Source: a virus (taxonomy: Duplodnaviria; Caudoviricetes). From it: DNA of 64,000 nucleotides. Positions 5,499-55,212 of the stretch are shown here, piece after piece; position 1 is the stretch's first letter; every line of letters starts with the position of its first letter. The translations under genes were made by a program, and so were the position numbers. The DNA is taken from the IMG/VR virus record IMGVR_UViG_3300020598_000119. One strand, written 5' to 3'. Under the pieces are notes generated by a model. It searched no databases and was not told where the DNA came from. It saw only the letters and a list, made by a program, of their open reading frames with translations.

Positions 5499-5514
5499 AG
5501 GAATATTTTCGACA

Positions 5515-6066
5515 TTAAGTATCGAGTGTGTGGCAGGGAGTTAGTGCATTTTCTCGCAATTCAATCAGGGCGTCAGCCTTCGCAGCCGCCTCGCTTGAAG
5601 TCGCACCGAATGAAACCGGAATATTGGAATAAAGCAGAGTCCAATTTCCGCCAGGAAGATGGGGCCGACGAACCAGCATCAGCGGATAATCTTTATCAAA
5701 ATATGTGAAAGGGCCGCCTTCAGGACCGTTCCAGAAGTCAGGTGCGCCTACGCCGTCTTGATGCTTGTGCTCAGGTAACTGCAAAGGCGCAAATTCAAGC
5801 GCTTGGTCGACAAGCCTGTTCAATCTGCCCGCAATTGAGGTCAGATCGCCACCACTGGAAAGGAAATAGGACACGTAATCCATCGCGCTTGAAGCGACCG
5901 TCAATCTTGCAGCCGTAGAGAGACGCGAATCCCAAAGGGCAGCACGATCTGCCGAGGCCGAAATTGCACGTGAAAGAAAATCACCAAATTGCTTTGATTC
6001 TGGTATTTCTTCCGAAATGGCAGCTATTTCCGCCAGGATTTTATCTATTTTGGTTTTTATATTCAT
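5515..6066 (-). CDS. Hypothetical protein
   Basis: ORF with GGAGG RBS before ATG 6066. Confidence 0.7.
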   Translation of the reverse strand: MNIKTKIDKILAEIAAISEEIPESKQFGDFLSRAISASADRAALWDSRLSTAARLTVASSAMDYVSYFLSSGGDLTSIAGRLNRLVDQALEFAPLQLPEHKHQDGVGAPDFWNGPEGGPFTYFDKDYPLMLVRRPHLPGGNWTLLYSNIPVSFGATSSEAAAKADALIELRENALTPCHTLDT

Positions 6067-6135
6067 ATGTTTAGGGCCTCCGAAGACCAAGTATGTGGTC
6101 AGCGGAAGCCCTAAACAAGCGTATTTATAGCCGAA

Positions 6136-7062
6136 TTATGCAGTCCGCCGCATTAATTCAGGATAGTGATTGGCCGGAGCCGGATCAGGCCGAGTTTCAT
6201 GAACTTGATCCACCAACTGACGGCGGACCTGTTCGCTCATATCGACAGGAGAGAGTTGCTCCTCGGATGTAGTTGCCTCCGATTTCACTGGCTCGTCGAT
6301 TTCGGCCGTTTGCACTGGCTCGGTGCCTGATGCCGAATTCTCATCATGGTTTTCAGCCAGAGCCTTGCGAGCCTCTTCTTCGGCCTTATCCCTCTCGATA
6401 TCCAACCCCAAACGATTTGTGATCAATCGGGCGAAGTCCCGCGCCTTCCCATCAATGAGAGGAGTATATTTCGGGTCATGCCCATCGGCCATGTCGCTAA
6501 AGGACTGGATGTAGGGAAACACCTCCGGCAAAAGAATACCCATCCTGTCCCAACGATGGATCATTTCCCGAATGCGCGGTTTACTCTCCAGAGCGTGCCG
6601 CTTACGGGCTTCTCCCGGCCACTTGTTCAAGACGATAAAGATATCCTTCTTTATCCCCTTTGTTTCGAAGTAGTTCGCCAACTCGAAATAATCCGCCTCC
6701 GCGACCTGCATCTCCTCAGCGCCAGATCCTGTTGGGATCAGGATCATGTCACAGAGTTCAGAAACGACGAAGTCGATGTTGCGGCGATTGGCTCCGCCGT
6801 CGACGACCATCACGGAATTGGGCACCGCCTCCATATAAGTCAGAATTGGCACCATGATGTCTTTAATGTCCCTACTCTGAGGGACGCTCGCGAGCATATA
6901 CTTCCGCGCATCAACCCATTCTGGTGGCCGAGCAGTGCGGACGTCCGTCATCATCATCACAGAGAAGCCGCCCATGTACATCACCCCATGAGCCAGCAGG
7001 TGCGATAGCAAAGATTTGCCAGAGCCACCCTTACGTCCCAAGATACCAACGATGCTGGTCAT
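6136..7062 (-). CDS. parA: ParA-family Walker-type partition ATPase (type Ib-like, no N-terminal HTH)
   Basis: Deviant Walker A RKGGSGKS at the N-terminus; Walker B VVDGG; ILIPT; VLNK. Confidence 0.85.
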   Translation of the reverse strand: MTSIVGILGRKGGSGKSLLSHLLAHGVMYMGGFSVMMMTDVRTARPPEWVDARKYMLASVPQSRDIKDIMVPILTYMEAVPNSVMVVDGGANRRNIDFVVSELCDMILIPTGSGAEEMQVAEADYFELANYFETKGIKKDIFIVLNKWPGEARKRHALESKPRIREMIHRWDRMGILLPEVFPYIQSFSDMADGHDPKYTPLIDGKARDFARLITNRLGLDIERDKAEEEARKALAENHDENSASGTEPVQTAEIDEPVKSEATTSEEQLSPVDMSEQVRRQLVDQVHETRPDPAPANHYPELMRRTA

Positions 7063-7073
7063 CTTATTTCCTT

Positions 7074-7658
7074 TCAAGGTGTTTGAACGTGAAGGCCCAA
7101 ACCATCATCCGTAGGCACGACTTGATCGTCTTTCATATTTGCCTTCGCGTAAGCGATCATGTGGCGAAGGATTTCTGACGTCGGAACTCGCCGATCCAAG
7201 CGAATGGCTTCGGTTCGCGACAGTCGTGCGATCAATTGATGATCGCTGTCATCCAGAGAATATGACTTCTCCGACTTTGTCTTGGTCCTTTTGGCTGGCG
7301 TTGCCACAGGCGCTTCCGGCACAGAAACCGATGCCCTGTCTTCCACCGGAACCTGTTGCTGAACGACGGGAGCCTGATGCTCCACTCGGGCCTGTGGCGC
7401 AGGCGGCTGAACAGTTTGCGGGGCCGGAACAGATTGACCAATAGTCTCGGCCGCCGCCATCTCCGTCATGCGTTGCAGCTCGGCGATTGTGCCACCAGGC
7501 GTGGCGTCTGGATAATGCTGTGCCTGCCGCATACGCTCGGCCAGGCCCGAGTTCAGTATGTCCAGCTTCGACTTGGGTTTTTCACGATTCATGAACGCAC
7601 TCTTCTTGTCGGAAGAGGTTAGCTGGTTCGTCGCAAGTGTTTGGCTGTTGCCGCTCAT
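7074..7658 (-). CDS. Ribbon-helix-helix DNA-binding protein with long disordered N-terminus (ParG/omega-like centromere-binding candidate)
   Basis: C-terminal KSYSLDDSDHQLIARLSR...VPTSEILRHMI fits the RHH strand-helix-helix pattern; directly upstream of parA; GGAGGGAAGG RBS before ATG 7658. Confidence 0.65.
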   Translation of the reverse strand: MSGNSQTLATNQLTSSDKKSAFMNREKPKSKLDILNSGLAERMRQAQHYPDATPGGTIAELQRMTEMAAAETIGQSVPAPQTVQPPAPQARVEHQAPVVQQQVPVEDRASVSVPEAPVATPAKRTKTKSEKSYSLDDSDHQLIARLSRTEAIRLDRRVPTSEILRHMIAYAKANMKDDQVVPTDDGLGLHVQTP

Positions 7659-7754
7659 AACGAGCCTTCCCTCCATTTTTGTTTCACCCGAATCAAAAGG
7701 CCGATCCTCACATTTCAAATACCGCGAATTCCCCGCTATGAGAATCCCAATTGG

Positions 7755-7770
7755 TTAACAAATTATTAAC
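7755..7770. promoter_or_regulatory. CtrA-binding box
   Basis: TTAA-CAAATTA-TTAAC; matches TTAA-N7-TTAAC on both strands; adjacent GANTC at 7742-7746. Confidence 0.6.
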
Positions 7771-9551
7771 CTCACAAGCTCCGAAGTTGTGTGGCGACCA
7801 GTTTAGCAATGTAACACGTTGATTTTATGTGCGTTTGCTAGACCGATAAAATATCATTCAATCACTAAGACAAACTGCGAAACTGAGGGTTTGCGTCATT
7901 TGCAACCTGTTAACTGGGCAGAATCACAAACTGCGAATCTGCCAATCTCCGAAGCGATCATTCGCACAAACCAGCAATCACACATTCCATTTGATTGGCA
8001 ATTGGCCAGTCTCTGATTTTGTCATTCTACTCTCTTGTCAAACTGGCAAAATCCAAACCTGATAGTTTGCGTTTCTGTGAAACTAACAGATTGGCAGTTT
8101 CTCATTTTCGGGGTTTGACAGGCTACGTCTATACCATTTTCCCAGACACACAGACTGCCACCCTGCCCTTCTGCCAAACAGATAGCCTCGTAGCCCGAGC
8201 TTTTCTTAAACAGACAGCATACCAACTTGTCAAAAAATCAAACTTGAAAAGACGCAAAATGACCGCCTATCAAACTACCAACCTGTCAGTTTCGTTGGCG
8301 GGCAGAATGCCAAACCCGCAATATGCGAGATTGCTAACCTACCACTCGGCTAATCTGCCAGGTTCATCGAGACGAAACCTCATAAACTGGCCGAACAACA
8401 CCCCCCTGCTCTGTCAAACTGGTAGTCTGTTAGTTTGTGCATCACACACAGACCGGAACAGATCAATCGTAACCTATCGAAGCTGCGATAGCTAACGCCT
8501 TGTTTTTATTGAATTTGCTAGTTTGATAGTTTGACAAGTTGATCATAATTATCAGGCATTCGAGGGCACAGGCCTGAGGGTTCATCGGGTCAGCGCTCCT
8601 TTCATGAGCAGGCCTTACATTTTATCAAACTGTGATGAATTCCAGCAGTCAAACTATCAAATTGACAATGACCGCAGCTATCAGTCTCTCCGGTTGAGAG
8701 GCCCGCAAATTGCCAATCTGCGGAACAACACAACGATCAAACAGCGAAACCAGCATACAAGCAGTTTCACAATCAGGCAGTTTCCCAAATACCCCGTTTG
8801 CCAAACTATCATTTTATCAACTTGAGACATTAGCAGGCTGACACTCGAACAATTTTGGAATTTCCCAAAGGCACTGCTTATGAAACCAACCGACTGATTT
8901 CTTGGCAGGCAAACAGCCTCCCAGACTATCAGACAGACACTTTTGCACTCTGGTAAGTTCTCATCCTGCTAGCTTGATGAGTTGGCAAAGGCGGTTTTTG
9001 GTTGTCTGTGGGAATGTGTGACTGCTTTTCTCGCACTCTGTGATTTTAATAGTCGACCAGTTTCGTAAGGTCCAAAACTGGCAAAATGAAAGGCTACCAA
9101 GATGGCAGTTTGATCTCCTCTCAATCCGACAGGCCAACAGCTTCACAAGCAAACATTCTGCTGAACTGGCATTTTGCAAAACCCGTTTACAGACACTTTG
9201 CCAAACAGTGAGCCTAGCTAAGGGTCGCACGCACAAAGTGCCACTCTGACAATCTGATAGTTTAAGAGCTTACCAGGGTGCCATTTTGGCATTCTGAGAG
9301 AAGCAATGATTGCATGTGACCCAAAGATGTCCTCGATCCGAAAAGGCGATCAATGAGAACGTCTACGATTGAAAGGAATGAACGCTTGGCGTTCTCTTAC
9401 GACGCGACGCGCGATAAGCGTTGCCATATCGTTCTTGGAGAATACACGGCGAAAGCGAAATCCGAGCGCTCCACACAAACTATCAGACTAACAGGTTGCC
9501 TGCTTCCCAGTTTGCCCGATTGGCAAACTAACATTCCGACAAACTGAGGCT
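7755..9551. repeat. Degenerate 8-bp-period tandem array (consensus YTGNCAR-N) in three phased blocks; candidate centromere or origin
   Basis: Blocks 7755-8546, 8614-9301 and 9472-9551 each keep one register, e.g. 8411 ctgtcaaa ctggtagt ctgttagt; 8515 ttgctagt ttgatagt ttgacaag; 9480 ctatcaga ctaacagg ttgcctgc ttcccagt ttgcccga ttggcaaa. Confidence 0.9.
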
Positions 9552-9942
9552 TCAAATCCGAAAAGCGCTAAACGCGATAGGGGAGGGGCTTCCGATCCAG
9601 GCGATGACAGCAAACCAAAGCGTCAGAGGAGGGGATCGTTCAAAGCGACTGGAGAAACACGAGGGAGACGGAAAGCGAGCATTCCGATGAGCGACACACG
9701 CTCTCCGATTGGGCTGTTCGCGAAAGAACCTCGACCTCGGACGATCAAGACCCATTCCAATCGCGCGGACAAAAATCTCCAGCGATTGGATAGCTAGTAT
9801 GGGATCTCGTTTGGCGAGGACTCAGAACCATCAAACAAAGGTCGCCCTTTTACACTCCTCGAAGAGGACGTGTGGCAACCCTTGACCATTTCAGTATGTG
9901 AGTGTCGGCGGCAAACGCCAAGCGAAAATAGAATTGGCTAAC

Positions 9943-10803
9943 CTAGGCCTCTTCGAAGACATCCAACAGAAGGCCTGCTTCCTGCCGGATAACGTCATCA
10001 CCAGCTGATGCATCGCAGAGTAGCCAACTATTCCCAAGCGTTCGCAAAACGACGTTCGAACGCGTCCACGAAAGCTCATCTCCTTCGCCGTAGTCGATAT
10101 TAAGACGCTGCGCCGACAGCTTGGAAGATCTGTCGGGGTCAATCTCGATGTGGAAGTAGGGGGCCACCCGCCAAGCCGTCCTGGAGTACGTCGCTTCATC
10201 GATCATCGCCGATGGCACCGTCTCTTCAAACAAGGCGATCAATTCTTCAGCAGTACGAGGCTTGTCCCCGCCAATCATGGTCTCGCAGACCTCACCCTCC
10301 TCATCCTCACCAGTCAAGACAATTCCAGCGACACCAAACTGACAGGCCTTATCGAGTTCACCCATCTGGTTCTTCTTGAAATCAACCACAGGGTCATTGG
10401 TCTTGGATTTGTCCATCCCTATGACGACGATTGCCCGATCCACCATCTTCGTCCCCTGTTTCGGGGGGAGGATGCACACTGCAGCATCGTTGAGCAGAAC
10501 AGGGAAGTTGTCGGTCTCGCGGGCGACGATGGTCTCGACAGATTTCACTGAGAGGATGCCGTCTTCGGACACCTCTGCCTTTCGCATAAGGACAATACCA
10601 CCGAGCCTGAGGCCATACTTCTTGAGAACTGAGAAGTCGCTCGGCTGAAAACCAACGGGGACTATACGAACTCGGGCTACATAAACCTGCCCCTCACGCA
10701 CTCCAGGCGCATCAGCGAGAATCTCAACCTTCGCAGCGCCATCAGCATCCCACTTAACAACTCGCGCGATAACGTTGGGTAATGCTGACCCCGACTTAGA
10801 CAT
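9943..10803 (-). CDS. Hypothetical protein
   Basis: Long ORF divergent from sbcB; start uncertain (10803-10863). Confidence 0.7.
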   Translation of the reverse strand: MSKSGSALPNVIARVVKWDADGAAKVEILADAPGVREGQVYVARVRIVPVGFQPSDFSVLKKYGLRLGGIVLMRKAEVSEDGILSVKSVETIVARETDNFPVLLNDAAVCILPPKQGTKMVDRAIVVIGMDKSKTNDPVVDFKKNQMGELDKACQFGVAGIVLTGEDEEGEVCETMIGGDKPRTAEELIALFEETVPSAMIDEATYSRTAWRVAPYFHIEIDPDRSSKLSAQRLNIDYGEGDELSWTRSNVVLRTLGNSWLLCDASAGDDVIRQEAGLLLDVFEEA

Positions 10804-10861
10804 TACTGCTTGCCTATTGCGAACTTCCATTGGACTCTGATGTAAATGCTGGAGTGAATTC

Positions 10862-12271
10862 ATGTCAGACCTCGTTTTCTATGATACTGAAGCTACGGAT
10901 GCAGACATCCGCCACGGGCAAATTACGCAATTTGGCGGTTTAAAGACTGATCTGGACTTCAATATCAGTGAAGAAATCAATTTCCGGGTTAAGCGGCTTC
11001 CATGGGTAGTGCCATCGCCAACGGCTTTGACCGTCACTAAAATGCAAGCCAGAGACCTCGATAACGAGGACGGTGTTTCCGAATATGAAGCTGCACGCAA
11101 GATGGAAAAATTTCTTGTTCCTGGATATGGACAGGAAAGGACATTGGTAACATTTCGCGGACCTTCATTCGACGACGAATTGATCCGTACAACTCTCTTC
11201 AGAAATCTGAATAATCCTTGGTTTTCATCAGGAAAAAAGACATCAAAGCTGGATGTATTCCATCTTGTTCGTCTGGCAAAAACGCTCAATGAGAACGCCT
11301 TAGAAGTCCCAATGGGAGACGAGGGCAAGCTTACCTGGCGATTGGAGAAACTTTGCGAGGCAAACGGCATCCAACTTGACGCACACGATGCCTTGGCTGA
11401 CTCGTATGGAACACTCGAAATCGCGGCTCTTGTTCGCAACACTACACCGAATGCTTGGCACACTTTGATGCGCTGCGGCCTTCCTGCACGGCAAGAAGAA
11501 CTGCTATCGGGCGCATATAGGAACGGCAAACCTCTGCTGTTGTTCCAATTTTTCTCAGAAGCAAAAGTTATTCCTTGCGCAGTCTTGGGAACAAACGACC
11601 AGAAAGGATGGATTCTAGCTGATCTCAGAGCAGAAAACATACCGGATATGGTCGACGACATAAGGGCGACCTTGTTCACCAAAGACACGCCGTTCCCGAT
11701 TGTCAAAAGCAACATGGCTCCGATTTTCTTGGACGAAACGACTGCGAGAGCAATCGATCCATCCATTGACACCAAATCAATAATCGCGAAAGCCAAAGAA
11801 ATCAAGGGGGGACGTTTAGCTGAACAGGCAGTAGAGGCATACAGAGGCCATGCGCATCCACGCCTCGAAAACATGACTTCGGAAGAAAAGATCTATTCCG
11901 GCTTCATCAGCGACAAAGATAAGCCCTTGTTAACTTCATTTCATCGGGCAGATACATGGGAAAAGAAATTGGCGATAAATTTCACAGACGCCCGCCTAAC
12001 GGATTTCAAGGCGCGCATTCTGCTAGACGCCTACTATTCCAATAAGGCTTCATTCCATGAAGAAGATGTGGCCATGCTGCGAGAACAATGCGCAGAGGCT
12101 CTTGATCGCCCATTTGCTGAAGCGAATTCACGCTTCATGACAATCAAGAAAGCGCTCGAAATAGGTGTTCCTCGCGATTGGGCGGACTGGGCAGAAGAGG
12201 TTTTCGATTATAAAATCGAGCCATCATGCGTGCTGGAACAAGAGGGGGATCAGTTGCAGATGTCCTTCTAA
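10862..12271 (+). CDS. sbcB: Exodeoxyribonuclease I (DEDDh 3'-5' ssDNA exonuclease)
   Basis: FYDTEAT, QFGG, FDDELIRTTLFRN, RLEKLCEANGI, AHDALAD, IYSGF motifs. Confidence 0.9.
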   Translation: MSDLVFYDTEATDADIRHGQITQFGGLKTDLDFNISEEINFRVKRLPWVVPSPTALTVTKMQARDLDNEDGVSEYEAARKMEKFLVPGYGQERTLVTFRGPSFDDELIRTTLFRNLNNPWFSSGKKTSKLDVFHLVRLAKTLNENALEVPMGDEGKLTWRLEKLCEANGIQLDAHDALADSYGTLEIAALVRNTTPNAWHTLMRCGLPARQEELLSGAYRNGKPLLLFQFFSEAKVIPCAVLGTNDQKGWILADLRAENIPDMVDDIRATLFTKDTPFPIVKSNMAPIFLDETTARAIDPSIDTKSIIAKAKEIKGGRLAEQAVEAYRGHAHPRLENMTSEEKIYSGFISDKDKPLLTSFHRADTWEKKLAINFTDARLTDFKARILLDAYYSNKASFHEEDVAMLREQCAEALDRPFAEANSRFMTIKKALEIGVPRDWADWAEEVFDYKIEPSCVLEQEGDQLQMSF

Positions 12272-16550: not shown

Positions 16551-17393
16551 TTAGGCTGCCTTGGCCTCATCGCTCTTTGGGCGACGGCCGCGCTTCACGG
16601 TCTTGGCTTCGTTAGCCTTCGGAGCCGATGCGGCCTTCGGCGGGCGACCACGACGACGCGGAGCCGACGTTTCTTCGGAAACCCTTTCCGATGACACGTT
16701 TTCTGCCTTGGCGCGCTGGTTGGCGATAGTCTTGTTCATAATCTCCTGACGCTTCTTCGCATAATTCGGAGCGACGACAGGGTAGTCAGGGCGCAGACCG
16801 AAGTGAGCGCGATATTCTTCCGGCGTCATACCGTATTTCGTTGCCAGAGCACGTTTGATGAAGGTCTGCTCGACGCCATCAATCAGGTTAACAATGGAGT
16901 CCGGCTTGATGGCATCCTCGGGGTCCATATTATTGAACGGCGTCCGGCTGATGTGCGCGAACTTATATCCCTGCTGCCCTTCGCCTGTTGCCGGAGCAGG
17001 GTAGCTGACTTCGGGATTTTTCTTCGGACGACCGGGGCCGCGCTTCTGGACAGGCTCGCTGCCGACCACTGCTAGGAACGGCAGGGTTTCTTGCGAGCGT
17101 TCTTCGCCACCTTCAGCACCCGCGTTTTCGCTGGATGTCTCCTGGGCGACTTCACCAACCACCAACGAGCGAGGCTTGCGACCGCGACGAGCAGCAGGCT
17201 GTTCAGCTCCTGCGGTCGTCTCAGCGCCAGACGGGGCCACAGCCGCAGCATTTTCACCTGCCACGTTAAAAACCACGTTCTTCACGCGCTCGAAAACGTT
17301 CGGCAAATCCTGCGGATTGACCTGATTATGCTGCACGTATGCAGTCATGAAATTCATCAGGTGGTCGAATGTAGTGGTTTTTTCTTCTGCCAT
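16551..17393 (-). CDS. mucR: MucR/Ros-family regulator with AT-hook insertions
   Basis: N-terminal AYVQHNQV...DLP; core GMTPEEYRAHFGLRPDYPVVAPNYA; GRP/GRK AT-hook-like motifs. Confidence 0.85.
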   Translation of the reverse strand: MAEEKTTTFDHLMNFMTAYVQHNQVNPQDLPNVFERVKNVVFNVAGENAAAVAPSGAETTAGAEQPAARRGRKPRSLVVGEVAQETSSENAGAEGGEERSQETLPFLAVVGSEPVQKRGPGRPKKNPEVSYPAPATGEGQQGYKFAHISRTPFNNMDPEDAIKPDSIVNLIDGVEQTFIKRALATKYGMTPEEYRAHFGLRPDYPVVAPNYAKKRQEIMNKTIANQRAKAENVSSERVSEETSAPRRRGRPPKAASAPKANEAKTVKRGRRPKSDEAKAA

Positions 17394-17766: not shown

Positions 17767-19740
17767 ATGCAACCTGATGCCTCCCAATCGTTCAATCCAT
17801 CCGCAAAAGCGGAGAACAATAGGGAAACATCGCACAATTCTGCCCAGAAATCGCTCCCTTTACCTCCTTTTAGCGCAAAGAACCCAGGAGAAAAGGCCTC
17901 CGAGGTCTTAAATCGGGTGTTTGGTTACCGAACCTTCAGAGCGGGACAGGACGACATTATCAATCATGTTGCCAATGGGCATAGCGCGTTTGTCCTTAAG
18001 CCAACGGGAGGAGGGAAATCGCTGTGTTATCAGGTACCTGCGCTTATGCGCGATGGGGTAACAGTCGTCCTTTCACCATTATTGGCATTGATGAAAGACC
18101 AGGTAGATACACTTCGTAAGAAAGGTGTACGCGCAGCCGCATTGACTTCTACGAGCAGCTGGACAGAAATCGATGAGATAAAGGCGGCGCTAGCGGCAAA
18201 TAATCTCGACATTCTATATATATCGCCCGAACGACTGAGCCTAGCTTCTTTTAAGCGCCTCATGTCAATTGCAAAGATTGGCCTTTTTGCTATCGATGAA
18301 GCGCATTGTGTGTCCCAATGGGGGCACGATTTTCGTTCCAGCTATCTGAACATTGGCAAATTTCTCGATTTATTTCCTGATGTTCCGAGGATTGCACTTA
18401 CTGCGACTGCCGATCCAGACACACAGGAAGAAGTAGCGACGCGACTTGGCATTACAGAAGCTAGGAAATTCGTAGAAAGTTTTGACCGCCCGAACATCGC
18501 AATTGACATCCAAGACAAGACTGAAGAGGCGAGTCAGGTTATTGAGCTTTTGAGAGATAACGGAGACGAGAACGCTATCGTATTTTGTTCGTCTCGCAGA
18601 AAGGTCGAGGAACTTCACTCTCTACTGGTTGAGAATGGCATTAACTCGATCCCATATCATGCAGCCATGGACCCCGATGTGCGGCGAGCCAACCAAGACA
18701 GGTTCTTGAATGAGAAGCCCGTCGTTGCGGTCGCGACTATCGCGTTTGGTATGGGCATCGACAAACCCGACATTCGCTTGGTTATCCACACAACGATGCC
18801 ACCTACTGCGGAAGGATATTACCAAGAGATCGGTAGGGCCGGACGCGACGGTCAGATGAGCAAGGCTGTCCTTCTCTATTCGCCAAAAGACGTCGTTCAT
18901 CAGATGCGCCATCTTCGCGTAAAATTGGAAGACAGCGCCGAAAACTCGACCGAAAGACAGCAGGCGATCCTGAGCATCAGAAAACTGCAGATGATGCAGG
19001 GAGTTGTTGAAAGCCCTGACTGCCGGAAAACCACGCTCCTTAGATGCTTCGGTGAAAATCTCCCAGAGCCATGTGGCACCTGTGATCGCTGTATATATCC
19101 AGCTGTCACTTACAATGCGACCAAGCCAAGCAATCTATTGGTCAGAACAGTTGGCCTGACCGGACAAAAATACGGGGCAGGGTATCTCATTGAAGTTCTG
19201 CAGGGGCTTACCACCGAACGCGTGATGGCCAACAACCATCAGGACATAGCCACCTTTGGATTGGGTTCCGATTTTAATCGGAAACAATGGCAGTCAATGG
19301 CGCGTCAGCTGGTGGCTGGAGGATATTTGAAATCGACCAAATTAAGCACACTCGAACTCGGCGAGAAAGCCTTTGGCCTCATAAAGGGCAACGACGTTGT
19401 CCACTTAACTCCAATGGGTCGCCAGCGCAGACTGATGCCAAAAAAGAAGGCAGGTGCCGGATTGCCTGAGAGTTTGAGGAACATGCTCGATGACCTGCTG
19501 CGCCTCAGAGAGGATATTGCGGCCGAGTACGGAATTGATCGATCTGCTGTTATAACGGATAGGGCGCTGGAAGAGATCATCTCAGCCCAACCGACCTCTA
19601 TCGAAGATCTCACGAACCTTAAATCGATTTCAGAAGGCCAGATTTCGGAGTATGGCTCTCGACTGCTGTCTGCTGTTAAGAGCCATACTCGAAACGACGA
19701 ACCCGACGCAGGAGTTCAAGAGTTCAATCTCTTCGGTTAG
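17767..19740 (+). CDS. recQ: RecQ DNA helicase
   Basis: [50 protein letters not shown], Zn-RQC CR...CGTCDRC, C-terminal HRDC. Confidence 0.97.
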
Positions 19741-20777
19741 GCGGCCTTCCGACTCGCAGGTGCCCTCGTTGATATCGTCGCCATCACATCGGCTATAGAG
19801 GCTTGAGGCACAGCCTGGGTGCCATCGTCGCTAACGATGTGCAATTGAGTTGGCCCCGAGACTATCACCCAAGCGACATGAGTTCCGCTGGAGCGGATTT
19901 CATAACCCCATGCCATGACATCCTGAGGTTCTTGAGCCACTCCCATCACATGCCTGGAGCCTGGCTTTTCCAGTTTGAGCGGCACCTTCTCCAACGAGAA
20001 CTGACCACCACTTGTCGTCTTGCCATCGTACCTCGGCTCGAATTGGCCTCCAAACCATGACGGTGCTCCGCTCAACAGCGGTGACGATGTGGCAGCCTTT
20101 GGAGGACGCCCTCGCCTGCTGGGAGCTTTGCCAGGTGCCGCACTCTCTGTAGCGACTGCTGCCTTTGGCTTGCGGCCCCGTTTCTGAGGAGCCGACTGAG
20201 GTGAAGCTTGTTCTACTACCTGAGCCTCCGTGGCGGCCTTCTTGGGCCGCCCACGGCCCTTTTTGGGAGCATCAGCCGTCTTCGGCTCTGCGGGTGCCGT
20301 TGATGCACTCTTGGGGGGACGTCCACGGCGCTTTTTAGGAGCTTCAGAAGCTTGAGCTGAGGGTGCTGGTGCGGTTGCGGAAGATTCTGCTTCCTCAGCT
20401 TTCGGAGGTCTGCCTCTGCGTTTTGCGGGCGCTTCTTCAGGTGCAGCCTGGCTGGATGCAGTTGTTCCGATCAATTCGAGATCGTCAATTACCCTTGCAA
20501 GATCGAGAAGGCTACCAAGCGTTATTCTGGCCCCGTCTCCTGAGAATGTGTCCATCAGGACCATCGTAGCGCCCGGGGCAATTTTCTCGTTCCCCGTTGG
20601 CCAGAATTTTGTAAGAACGCTTTTGATCCCTTCCAGGGAAGATGTCTTGACGGAAACACTCTTGGTTCCGGACCTTGATATGCTCGCCATATCACCGTTT
20701 GAAGATGTGGTGATTTTATATGGACCGGGAAGAGTGAGCGTTGCGTCCGTCGATTTCGACTGTTGGACTGCACTCAT
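19737..20777 (-). CDS. Multi-AT-hook, HMGA/histone-like protein
   Basis: [38 protein letters not shown] in an A/P/S/K-rich linker between two globular ends. Confidence 0.8.
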
Positions 20778-37705: not shown

Positions 37706-40003
37706 ATGAGTACAGAAAACGCTTCCCCATTTTATGCAGAAACATTTCTGCTTCGCGCTGCCACTGGGCAGAATACGGCCGCTATCGCCAAGAAATTAGG
37801 CGTTAAATCCGCCCAATTGAAGAAGTGGGAGAACGGCGCTGAGCCGACCCCAGTCGAAATTACGACAAAACTTAAGGCTCTTCAGCCCGAGCCTCGACAT
37901 CAAAGTCAGAATAAATTTCGTTTTATCGATCTGTTCGCTGGCATTGGCGGCCTTCGAAAGGCTTTCGAAAATGCAGGTGGAGAATGCGTTTTTACGAGCG
38001 AATGGAACCAAAACGCGCTTGAAACCTACATGGCGAATTACGGCGTTGGGCATCCCGTCGCTGGTGACATCACTAAGGTCGAAGCTTCGGAAATTCCTGA
38101 CCACGACATTCTCGTTGGAGGGTTTCCCTGCTTCCCTGCTGGCACTCTAATCGAGACCGAGACTCGCTTCCGTCCTATCGAAGACATCAGAGCTGGCGAC
38201 ATGGTCGCCACTCATCAGCATCGGCTGCGCAAGGTTCTAACTGCCATGCGCCGCGATGATGCAGAACTTTATGACGTCAAAATAACAGGCATCCCATCGT
38301 TCAAAACGACTGATGAACATCCTTTCTACGTGCGCAAGAAGCAGCGTTCATGGAACAATGCTCGTCGTGGTTATGATTACACATTTGGCGAGCCTGAATG
38401 GATCGCCGCACAAGATCTAACTGGTGATCACTACGCCGCACTGCCTGTAGACACGGAATTTCTTAGCCAAGGCGATGAGCCTTTCAGCGGCAACGCTTTC
38501 TGGTACCTTGTAGGTCGATGGCTAGGCGATGGATGGATCGCCGATTATCCAAGAACAGAAGAAGGGCGAGAAAATTCTCGTATTCGTAAAGTGCTAATTT
38601 GCACTGGCACAGAGGACGCCGACAATCTAGAAACTGCTATTAAGGCGGCGGGGTTCTCTTGCACGAGAGTTACAGAGCGAACCGTCGTTAAATTCCACAT
38701 TTGTTCGAAGGATTTTGTCGAATTTCTGGCTCAGTTTGGTCGCTGTGCTGACGGCAAGCAACTTCCACGACGAATTTTCTCGCTGCCCCTATCCGCACAG
38801 AAGGAGATTTGGAATGGCTGGATGGACGCTGATGGCTACAAGCACAAGGACTCTGAAAAATATTCGGCGACATCCATCAACAGAGCGCTTTCACTTCAAA
38901 TGGCGAGATTGGCTCGCAATGTTTACGGTCGAGTCGCGACGGTTAAGCGATCCAACGTCCCTCCCACGAAGGTGATCGAAGGACGCAATGTAAATCAGCG
39001 CGCTCAGTACCACACGACGCTTGCCCCAACCAATCACGGCCTCACATTTATCGAGGGGAATTATGCTTGGGTAAAGGTGAAGTCCGTCAAAAAGACAGGT
39101 GAAACTGCTACCGTCTACAATATCGAGGTCGAAGAAGATAATTCCTACGTTGCAGAGGGCGTTATTGTCCATAATTGCCAGCCGTTTTCACTGGCCGGAG
39201 TTTCGAAGAAAAACTCAACTGGCACACCCCATGGCTTCGAGGACAAAACACAAGGCACCCTGTTCTTCGACGTCGCGCGCATCATCAAGGAAAAGCGTCC
39301 GAAGGCATTCTTGCTTGAGAACGTTCGAAACCTCGCTGCTCACGACAAGGGTCGCACTTTCGAGGTGATAAAGAACGTCCTTCAGGAAGAACTCGGCTAT
39401 ACAATCGCATGGAAGATCATGGAAGGCACGCCATGGGTTCCGCAGCGTCGTCCTCGCATCGCGATTGTCGGCTTCCGCGACGGTTTCCAGTTCGATTTCG
39501 ACACCGTCAACACCAGAACCAATCGCCAGCCCGTGCTTGGAGACATTCTACATGCGCCAGGCGAAGCTCCTGAAGGCGATGATCGATTTGCAACCGATGG
39601 CGTGGTCCATGACAAATACACGCTGACTGACGGTCTATGGGCATACCTGCAGGCTCATGCCGCTCTCCACAAGGAGAAGGGCAACGGCTTCGGCTACGGC
39701 ATGCATGGCCCTAATGACATCGCCCGCACACTGACAGCTCGATACTACAAGGATGGCGCTGAGATCCTGATCCATCAGGAGGGCAAGAACCCGAGACGCC
39801 TCACACCGCGTGAGTGCGCACGTCTCATGGGCTTTGAGTACCCAGGTGAGGCCGAGATGATCATCCCGGTTTCGGATACGCAGGCGTACAAGCAATTCGG
39901 CAACTCGGTCATCATTCCAATGTTTGCCGAGATCGCAAAGGCCATGGTTCCAACCGTGCTCGAACAGATCGCCGAGGAGCAGGAAAACGAAAAGGCCGCT
40001 TAG
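37706..40003 (+). CDS. dcm: C5-cytosine DNA methyltransferase (Dcm/M.EcoRII-like) with N-terminal HTH and an intein
   Basis: FIDLFAGIGG; GFP|CQPFS split by an intein; QGTLFFDVARII; LLENV; KGNGFGYG; LTARYYKDG; QFGNSV. Confidence 0.92.
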   Translation: MSTENASPFYAETFLLRAATGQNTAAIAKKLGVKSAQLKKWENGAEPTPVEITTKLKALQPEPRHQSQNKFRFIDLFAGIGGLRKAFENAGGECVFTSEWNQNALETYMANYGVGHPVAGDITKVEASEIPDHDILVGGFPCFPAGTLIETETRFRPIEDIRAGDMVATHQHRLRKVLTAMRRDDAELYDVKITGIPSFKTTDEHPFYVRKKQRSWNNARRGYDYTFGEPEWIAAQDLTGDHYAALPVDTEFLSQGDEPFSGNAFWYLVGRWLGDGWIADYPRTEEGRENSRIRKVLICTGTEDADNLETAIKAAGFSCTRVTERTVVKFHICSKDFVEFLAQFGRCADGKQLPRRIFSLPLSAQKEIWNGWMDADGYKHKDSEKYSATSINRALSLQMARLARNVYGRVATVKRSNVPPTKVIEGRNVNQRAQYHTTLAPTNHGLTFIEGNYAWVKVKSVKKTGETATVYNIEVEEDNSYVAEGVIVHNCQPFSLAGVSKKNSTGTPHGFEDKTQGTLFFDVARIIKEKRPKAFLLENVRNLAAHDKGRTFEVIKNVLQEELGYTIAWKIMEGTPWVPQRRPRIAIVGFRDGFQFDFDTVNTRTNRQPVLGDILHAPGEAPEGDDRFATDGVVHDKYTLTDGLWAYLQAHAALHKEKGNGFGYGMHGPNDIARTLTARYYKDGAEILIHQEGKNPRRLTPRECARLMGFEYPGEAEMIIPVSDTQAYKQFGNSVIIPMFAEIAKAMVPTVLEQIAEEQENEKAA
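38129..39175 (+). mobile_element. Intein with LAGLIDADG homing endonuclease (349 aa)
   Basis: Starts CFPAGTLI; block B TTDEHPFY; LVGRWLGDG and WNGWMDADG; ends VYNIEVEEDNSYVAEGVIVHN followed by Cys. Confidence 0.95.
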
Positions 40004-40011
40004 GGCGGCCT
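39993..40011. terminator. GC hairpin at the methylase stop
   Basis: AGGCCGC-ttagg-GCGGCCT. Confidence 0.6.
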
Positions 40012-40073
40012 GATAACCTGTTCGTCTGATAGTTTAACAGCCTGCCGAGTTGTCAGCTTGGCAGGCTATTTGC
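40010..40073. repeat. Satellite octamer array (8 units)
   Basis: ctgataac ctgttcgt ctgatagt ttaacagc ctgccgag ttgtcagc ttggcagg ctatttgc. Confidence 0.8.
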
Positions 40074-55140: not shown

Positions 55141-55212
55141 CTCTCAACCTATCATTTTCACAGACTATCAACTCAGCCCTTTGTGAAACACACAAACTGA
55201 CAAGCTGCCTGC
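55141..55212. repeat. Satellite octamer array (9 units)
   Basis: ctctcaac ctatcatt ttcacaga ctatcaac tcagccct ttgtgaaa cacacaaa ctgacaag ctgcctgc. Confidence 0.7.

Follow-up and report, generated by a model that had tools for sequence, protein, structure and literature searches.

The window analyzed here, a 64,000-nucleotide stretch of DNA filed as virus record IMGVR_UViG_3300020598_000119, carries a long array of 8-base-pair (bp) units immediately upstream of two genes for a ribbon-helix-helix (RHH) protein and a ParA-type ATPase. We propose, with a probability of roughly 0.55, that this array, hereafter the lattice, provides the DNA component of a type Ib-like partition complex of very large size, with one RHH dimer on each unit, and that it probably doubles as the autoregulatory operator of the operon. 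It would then be a protein-coated centromere on a rhizobial mobile element, probably exceeding about tenfold the size of those described for segregation systems of this type. An initial annotation of this DNA had already suggested a centromere, an interpretation that the present analysis partly supports. The features on which the argument rests are as follows.

7755..8546, no strand assigned: lattice block 1, promoter-side, about 99 units of 8 bp in one register, starts at 3 modulo 8
8547..8613, no strand assigned: non-lattice spacer between the blocks, about 57% identical among close relatives
8614..9301, no strand assigned: lattice block 2, distal, 86 units in one register, starts at 6 modulo 8
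9472..9551, no strand assigned: lattice block 3, a small outlier of 9-10 units
7659..7754, minus strand: non-lattice leader of about 96 bp, from the lattice edge to the RHH start codon, 85-96% conserved
7074..7658, minus strand: RHH-family protein of 194 residues with a C-terminal RHH domain (residues ~130-175, ribbon EKSYSLD)
6136..7062, minus strand: ParA-type ATPase of 308 residues with a deviant Walker A motif, GRKGGSGKS, beginning 11 nucleotides past the RHH stop codon

The lattice, its register and its conservation

Fourier analysis gave a power at period 8.0 of 15.6 for 7755-8546 and 13.3 for 8614-9301, far above the 0.73 ± 0.41 (maximum 2.7) obtained with dinucleotide-preserving shuffles, and the spectrum contained harmonics at periods 4 and 2. 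When a period-8 scan was slid along all 64 kilobases (kb), power above 4 was confined to 7721-9300. Folding the blocks modulo 8 produced a phase table of Y1, T2 (~70%), G3 (50%), N4, C5 (50-64%), A6 (~77%), R7 and W8. The resulting consensus, YTGNCARW, agrees with the YTGNCARN proposed in the initial annotation, position 8 being W, and each unit holds only about 3 bits of information.

The lattice was delimited with a hidden Markov model (HMM) decoded by the Viterbi algorithm, comprising nine states (eight cyclic and one background) and a slip penalty. It returned segments at 7755-8542, 8614-9301 and 9475-9547, with 192 whole units in total, which are essentially the coordinates and counts that had been put forward. 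The proposed register of block 1 does extend over 7755-8546, but its strong part is 7755-8448; the final ~100 bp (8449-8546) are weak and were scored as background by a de novo-seeded model.

The units had been described as almost never identical to their neighbors, and none are: the neighbor-to-neighbor Hamming distance averages 4.8 of 8, and 97 of the 99 units in block 1 are distinct. Tandem Repeats Finder reported only two arrays, of 2.6-2.8 copies each, and missed the lattice. With no identical neighbors and so little returned by a repeat finder, the array is cryptic. The correlation between the unit matrix and its reverse complement, r = 0.92 (null 99th percentile 0.82), shows the matrix to be palindromic. 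The claim of a self-complementary unit holds to that extent, but the palindrome is slightly polar at positions 1 and 7. All 15 perfect TGNCA matches in block 1 fall in one phase, and in 9472-9543 each of the nine units has Y at position 1 and C at position 5, just as had been noted. Together, the spectrum and the matrix describe palindromic 8-bp units that abut one another and recur every 8 bp exactly, as in MetJ-type operators.

Unit strength displayed no super-period at 16 bp, 32 bp or any other spacing, with autocorrelation close to zero at lags of 1-10 units in nine loci. The GC content of the lattice is 42-48%, against 51% for the window, and has no sharp AT-rich dip. GANTC (CcrM) and GATC sites are not enriched in the lattice, Rfam matched nothing in 7000-10500, and Megablast of 5500-10900 against plasmid and phage collections returned no match. 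The leader between the lattice and the RHH gene contains a GGAGG ribosome-binding site and presumably houses the operon promoter, whose position we infer. At the promoter-side edge of the lattice (7748-7772), a perfect CCAATTGG palindrome overlaps a GGTTAA-N7-TTAACC inverted repeat; it could be a separate operator or a nucleation site.

The initial annotation proposed a search for period-8 arrays beside RHH orthologues. An excess of lag-8 matches, seen also at lags 16, 24 and 32, was found upstream of the RHH gene at 13 of 13 family loci, drawn from Mesorhizobium, Pararhizobium, Agrobacterium rubi, Sinorhizobium meliloti and metagenomes. These loci span 36-62% GC and take in the two RHH relatives that were the most distant of those examined; on short contigs, too, distant RHH relatives have a lattice upstream. 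No lag-8 excess was found at any of seven loci of remoter ParA relatives (25-31% identity). Models seeded de novo identified two long register-locked blocks with a break between them at every modelled locus (n = 9). The distal block measures 648-727 bp (~82-90 units) in eight of the nine, despite complete sequence turnover; counterparts of 8614-9301 are present in loci L003, L006, L007, L010, L011, L012 and L014, and block 3 has a counterpart of 70-71 bp in L014 and L003. The distance from the array edge to the RHH start codon is 75-116 bp across relatives. The consensus drifts by lineage, to TMNKA in L007 and to a CAG-rich form at 62% GC, and every one of the nine modelled loci keeps its palindromy (r = 0.88-0.95, exceeding the 99th percentile of the null), which fits a two-fold symmetric dimer as the reader. 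This architecture persists between loci whose RHH proteins are just 27-36% identical and whose GC contents lie 26 points apart. A helical phasing of the two blocks relative to each other was considered and rejected, since the inter-block register shift is not conserved across loci.

Gene order is preserved in every locus with sufficient flanks: an exonuclease gene, a 287-residue gene, a gap of 1.9-2.5 kb, the RHH gene, the ATPase gene, a gene of ~185 residues and topoisomerase III. The lattice is co-inherited with the RHH-ATPase gene pair. The RHH protein comes from a small family: a word-indexed search gave 8 clusters, and a set of 1.84 billion proteins contained 59 representatives at E ≤ 1e-3. 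For the ATPase, 38 relatives could be detected, including those of Agrobacterium rubi and Sinorhizobium meliloti, and it occurs at E ≤ 1e-25 in only one of 401 sampled genomes of the order.

The copy of the region in Mesorhizobium sp. SP-1A and the closer or similar copies in two metagenomic contigs were each compared with the window, whose intergenic region is 77-80% identical to theirs. Positions 1, 2, 5 and 6 had substitution rates of 0.125-0.151, lower than the 0.214-0.288 of positions 4 and 8 (Fisher p = 1e-4 to 7e-8); the three comparisons are non-independent because the window sequence is common to all. Rates are low at the informative phases, so substitutions track the information content of each phase. 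Lattice sites diverged by 0.16-0.21, against 0.27-0.40 for non-lattice intergenic DNA. When identity is binned at 24 bp, most bins of the blocks reach 80-95%, compared with 50-60% for the spacers and 20-45% for the distal intergenic DNA; identity in 9302-9470 is ~50-65%, and past 9603 the sequences are hardly alignable. Insertions and deletions (indels) are few in the well-defined parts of the blocks, where the three clear ones are exactly 8 bp; outside the blocks they are numerous and of arbitrary length. The phase-specific substitutions, the conserved blocks and the 8-bp indels indicate that the unit sequence and, above all, the register are kept by selection, as the initial annotation had argued in preference to slippage. 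The lattice is under phase-specific purifying selection.

The gene pair and its surroundings

The product of 7074-7658 had been called an RHH protein, and structure prediction agrees. It begins with ~50 conserved residues, among them an invariant F22 with basic residues nearby; a variable linker rich in Pro and Gln, for which disorder is predicted, connects these to a conserved C-terminal domain. The AlphaFold (AF2) model places an extended segment at residues 130-136 and helices at 137-154 and 160-174, with a predicted local distance difference test score (pLDDT) of 79-91 over residues 130-175. In a fold search of 48,161 chains, independent of Foldseek, RHH proteins filled nearly all the top rows. 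TraM was the best match (Z 5.5, root-mean-square deviation 2.7, 50 residues aligned), and CdbA, PutA, NikR, ParD, Arc, omega and pCXC100 ParB were among the others. The matches cover ~45 residues at Z 5.5-3.5, low values that are to be expected for so short a domain. A homodimer prediction with two copies of residues 122-194 scored 0.72, against 0.00 for the best control, and passed a mark attained by 20 of 30 solved homodimers and by 1 of 23 single chains. Contacts agreed between runs to at least 95%, the pLDDT of the partner was 82, and residue 132 contacted residue 132 as in an antiparallel ribbon. As RHH dimers are abundant among solved structures, this pass may reflect likeness to them. 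The models thus assign the protein the RHH fold and predict an intertwined dimer, with the strand-helix-helix order and antiparallel ribbon that define the superfamily. A single-sequence search of the PDB found no match for the RHH protein, and such single-protein searches yielded nothing useful overall.

The next gene had been annotated as ParA, and its product is indeed a ParA-type ATPase. Its Walker A motif begins at residue 9 and hardly varies among 21 homologues. The best PDB matches of the ATPase profile are TP228 ParF (4dzz, E 1.1e-6), its nearest solved relative, and then the ParA 5u1g; homologues of the ATPase at 41-46% identity carry PF13614 or PF01656. Type Ib systems pair a small ParA-type ATPase, having a deviant Walker A motif and lacking an N-terminal DNA-binding domain, with a binding protein of the same operon that is not of the helix-turn-helix type and is typically an RHH protein. 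Both elements are present here, the two genes being separated by 11 nucleotides in the window and overlapping or nearly contiguous in relatives. Residues ~225-308 of the ATPase (6136-6400, minus strand) form an acidic, low-complexity C-terminal tail of ~80 residues that is missing or shorter in relatives of 243-279 residues.

Two further genes of the neighborhood and two small arrays complete the picture.

5515..6066, minus strand: third conserved gene of the module, ~183 residues, after the ATPase gene in all syntenic loci
9943..10803, minus strand: conserved gene of 286 residues, upstream of the lattice on the same strand, a possible alternative binder
40010..40067, no strand assigned: satellite array with the lattice consensus, 7 in-register units, between two convergent genes
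55141..55209, no strand assigned: satellite array with the lattice consensus, 8-9 in-register units, intergenic

The period-8 signal had been expected to be limited to the three blocks. This stands for long arrays, of which there is no other in the 64 kb, but not for short ones: running the lattice HMM over the whole window returned the two satellites, and shuffles (12 x 62 kb) gave zero segments. Both satellite regions are 98-100% identical in Mesorhizobium sp. SP-1A, so their conservation is uninformative on selection there.

Neither the ~183-residue protein nor the 286-residue protein had a Pfam match or a usable ESM Atlas match. At every locus, the gene for the latter is flanked by an RNase_T-type exonuclease gene on one side and by the lattice on the other; the model of this protein is mostly beta (pLDDT 72), and Foldseek returned only faint OB-fold-like rows (RPA, SSB) that are non-significant (E > 1e-3). 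The module as a whole lies among genes for topoisomerase III, a TraW-like protein, the RNase_T-type exonuclease, type IV pilus proteins, RecQ and UvrD. In the nearest genome, that of Mesorhizobium sp. SP-1A, it is found within a contig of 1.19 megabases (Mb).

The element is a mosaic relative to its SP-1A counterpart (G001:C2:852246-916856). The stretch at 30-41 kb is 99-100% identical and the partition module 77-95%, and the stretches at 26.0-27.5, 53.0-54.0 and ~23.2-24.4 kb are missing or poorly matched in SP-1A. This pattern suggests recombination between related elements. Just distal to the lattice, the 228 bp of 9605-9833 correspond to ~4 kb in SP-1A (G001:C2:861840-865866), through an insertion or a deletion. 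Elsewhere, a C-5 cytosine DNA methylase gene (37706-40003, plus strand) is split by an intein with Hint/Intein_splicing domains at residues ~141-490. A Ros/MucR-domain protein with a long N-terminal extension (16551-17393, minus strand) and an AT-hook protein (19737-20777, minus strand) could be nucleoid-associated regulators of the element.

A proposed partition complex and the alternatives

We envisage the following mechanism, by analogy with characterized RHH systems. A single dimer of the RHH protein encoded next to the lattice would occupy each pseudo-palindromic unit of 8 bp, made up of YTGNCAR and one spacer base. With only ~3 bits in a single unit, binding must be cooperative; one dimer per unit and cooperative growth follow the precedents of MetJ, ParG and pESBL ParB, and under such growth the register becomes the selected property. 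An exact register over ~85-100 units would allow dimers nucleating anywhere to fuse into one gap-free filament. At a rise of 8 bp and a rotation of ~274 degrees per dimer, the protein would wind as a left-handed helix, placing ~190 dimers on the DNA. The conserved N-terminal domains, displayed on long Pro/Gln-rich linkers, would give the coated DNA the form of a bottle brush that could recruit and stimulate the ParF-like ATPase. The large element, or an excised form of it, would thereby be positioned on the nucleoid. Because ~90 bp separate the lattice edge from the start codon, a complete filament would reach right up to the promoter, matching the supply of protein to the number of sites. Binding, its stoichiometry, the filament geometry, ATPase stimulation, segregation and autoregulation are thus steps that we infer.

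Several observations weigh against a partition complex of this kind. In the window, as in all related loci, the RHH gene comes first and the ATPase gene second, the reverse of the classical type Ib order. The ATPase has no Pfam match at E ≤ 0.01, and it scores 23.5 bits on the NCBIfam model ParA_partition (NF041546), whose cut-off is 180. Pfam likewise returned nothing for the RHH protein, and its RHH families were matched by none of 11 family members at E ≤ 5. In the model, the predicted DNA-facing residues are Ser/Ser/Asp, unusually non-basic for such a surface, and these positions show no visible co-variation with the lineage changes in the lattice consensus. A pairing of ribbon residues with consensus was dropped as L007 has the same residues and TMNKA in place of TGNCA. 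A promoter/terminator scan was no richer in sites than shuffles and placed no consensus promoter at the edge of the lattice. The satellite at 40010-40067 lies between convergent genes and is therefore not an operator. Finally, because the module of SP-1A lies within a contig of megabase size, the element may be integrated, and a constitutive centromere would then be odd.

The main rival holds that the same RHH-coated array serves conjugation, recruiting the DNA or relaxosome to a type IV secretion system as VirC1/VirC2 do at overdrive or TraM at sbm. We consider this unlikely, though less so than the other alternatives. VirC2, a protein of ~200 residues with a C-terminal RHH fold, is the partner of the ParA-like VirC1 in Rhizobiales. 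The module sits amid conjugation and DNA-processing genes, the relaxosome protein TraM is the best structural match of the RHH domain, and the element may be integrated. Partition proteins are also known to assist type IV secretion (PMC8716806, PMC4949242). Set against this, the known sites (overdrive, sbmA-C) measure tens of bp and the lattice 1.6 kb, and the annotation of neighboring genes, made with Pfam and with no search aimed at an origin of transfer or a relaxase, identified no relaxase gene or nick site beside the lattice. The best match of the ATPase profile is the partition ATPase ParF, though VirC1 has no solved structure with which to compete; the Pfam VirC1 family was not matched by the ATPase.

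We regard it as improbable that the lattice is a mere regulatory sink or silencer, in which ~190 weak sites would titrate an RHH repressor, so timing or buffering expression of the operon or activation of the element, or form a transcription barrier, and no DNA would be moved. The array does stop at a conserved 75-116 bp before the start codon, type Ib RHH proteins double as repressors (PMC3130281), and short satellites occur elsewhere in the element. Operators, however, have no need of ~190 units or of two blocks of conserved length, the RHH gene is translationally coupled to that of a ParA-type ATPase in every locus, and one of the satellites lies between the ends of convergent genes.

Similarly improbable is a lattice read by another protein, whether the 286-residue protein, a host nucleoid protein or a replication initiator, or one that acts as a structural or origin element. 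The 286-residue gene is just as syntenic with the lattice, its model faintly resembles OB-fold DNA-binding proteins, and TG/CA steps are flexible. Yet those OB-like matches fall short of significance, a palindromic 8-bp unit suits a symmetric dimer on duplex DNA, and RHH proteins provide precedents at exactly this period. Survival of the lattice at 62% GC speaks against a reader with a preference for AT-rich DNA, and the remote RHH relatives on short contigs keep it upstream. An origin, one of the alternatives named in the initial annotation, finds no favor in the sequence: DnaA-box matches are absent from 7755-9551 at up to one mismatch, there is no AT-rich dip, and an 8-bp period differs from the length of iterons (17-22 bp).

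Finally, that the lattice is a functionless microsatellite decaying after replication slippage, as a tandem 8-bp periodicity in non-coding DNA might suggest, is excluded by the conservation data: rather than highly identical repeats there are neighbors that never match and a nearly empty Tandem Repeats Finder output, the register has outlasted ~20% sequence divergence with phase-specific substitutions and blocks better conserved than their flanks, the architecture is kept at 27-36% RHH identity and a 26-point GC difference, and this divergence excludes the related loci being recent copies of one another.

Comparison with known systems

The components and the 8-bp grammar of the lattice belong to known type Ib systems. 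The closest likeness is to ParF-ParG of TP228, which also combines an RHH binder having a flexible N-terminal part with a small ParA-type ATPase, and whose degenerate boxes are likewise spaced at 8 bp in two clusters upstream of the operon (PMC3130281). ParG binds parH and OF with one dimer per box and coats them cooperatively, the site serving as both centromere and operator (PMC3130281). The differences are considerable. TP228 has 20 boxes in ~160 bp (PMC3130281), in contrast to ~192 units in ~1.6 kb here, a disparity close to the tenfold one that had been claimed. Its boxes are oriented ACTC tetramers with AT-rich spacers, whereas the units here have a palindromic TGNCA core. In TP228 the ATPase gene comes first; here the RHH gene does. 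ParG is a protein of 76 residues, compared with 194 residues and a long Pro/Gln linker for the RHH protein of the window, and there is no detectable sequence relationship between the two.

In pESBL (IncI), one ParB binds each 8-bp repeat, weakly to a single octamer and cooperatively to arrays, which flank the operon (PMC7602700). Each of these arrays consists of 7-8 nearly identical GATAACAA repeats, whereas a main block of the lattice has 86-99 non-identical units of ~3 bits each. The abutting 8-bp palindromic units also recall MetJ, which acts in transcription control with a co-repressor and has no ATPase partner. MetJ operators contain 2-5 boxes. One RHH dimer occupies each palindromic unit of such an operator, and the units abut at an exact 8-bp period (PMC3413123).

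The omega protein of pSM19035 is among the fold matches of the RHH domain. The omega/delta system differs in its 7-bp period, and it has 7-10 heptads per site. Omega dimers bind cooperatively to consecutive short repeats at several plasmid sites and activate the ParA ATPase (PMC9499535). VirC1/VirC2 and TraM resemble the window pair in that TraM is the top structural match (PMC3159463) and, for VirC2, in the combination of a ParA-like ATPase with an RHH protein of ~200 residues; their sites extend over tens of bp beside a nick site.

The complexes formed by ParB with cytidine triphosphate (CTP) in type Ia and chromosomal systems offer a functional analogy only. They gather hundreds of binding proteins over kilobases around the centromere (PMC8494293). 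Their size arises from CTP-driven sliding and condensation off one or a few parS sites, whereas here it would come from an array encoded in the DNA.

We found no array of this size in the literature. What is new is the scale, ~192 units against 7-20 in the compared systems; the combination of extreme degeneracy with a perfect register; the conserved two-block architecture with its distal block of ~680 bp; and the reversed gene order together with a long-linker binding protein.

Spreading by CTP-driven sliding is not known for centromere-binding proteins of the RHH type (PMC7602700), which raises the question of how such systems could serve replicons of hundreds of kilobases. The lattice suggests an answer, in which the DNA itself would set the size of the complex through ~190 phased weak sites. 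Tentatively, and at somewhat less than even odds, we extend this to a general proposal of hard-wired spreading: the RHH/ParA systems of very large rhizobial elements would encode a phase-coherent lattice of weak sites, readable only by a cooperative filament. If this is true, a complex on the scale of a ParB-CTP condensate (~190 dimers) would be built without sliding from a point site, the conserved distal coherence length of ~85 units would point to a filament of defined length as the functional unit, and the lattice would be a regional, sequence-periodic bacterial centromere. It would also provide a clean example from nature of selection that acts on register and on joint occupancy instead of on individual sites. 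The lattice further shows that a functional array can escape standard repeat finders, and spectral scans of mobile elements may therefore bring others to light.

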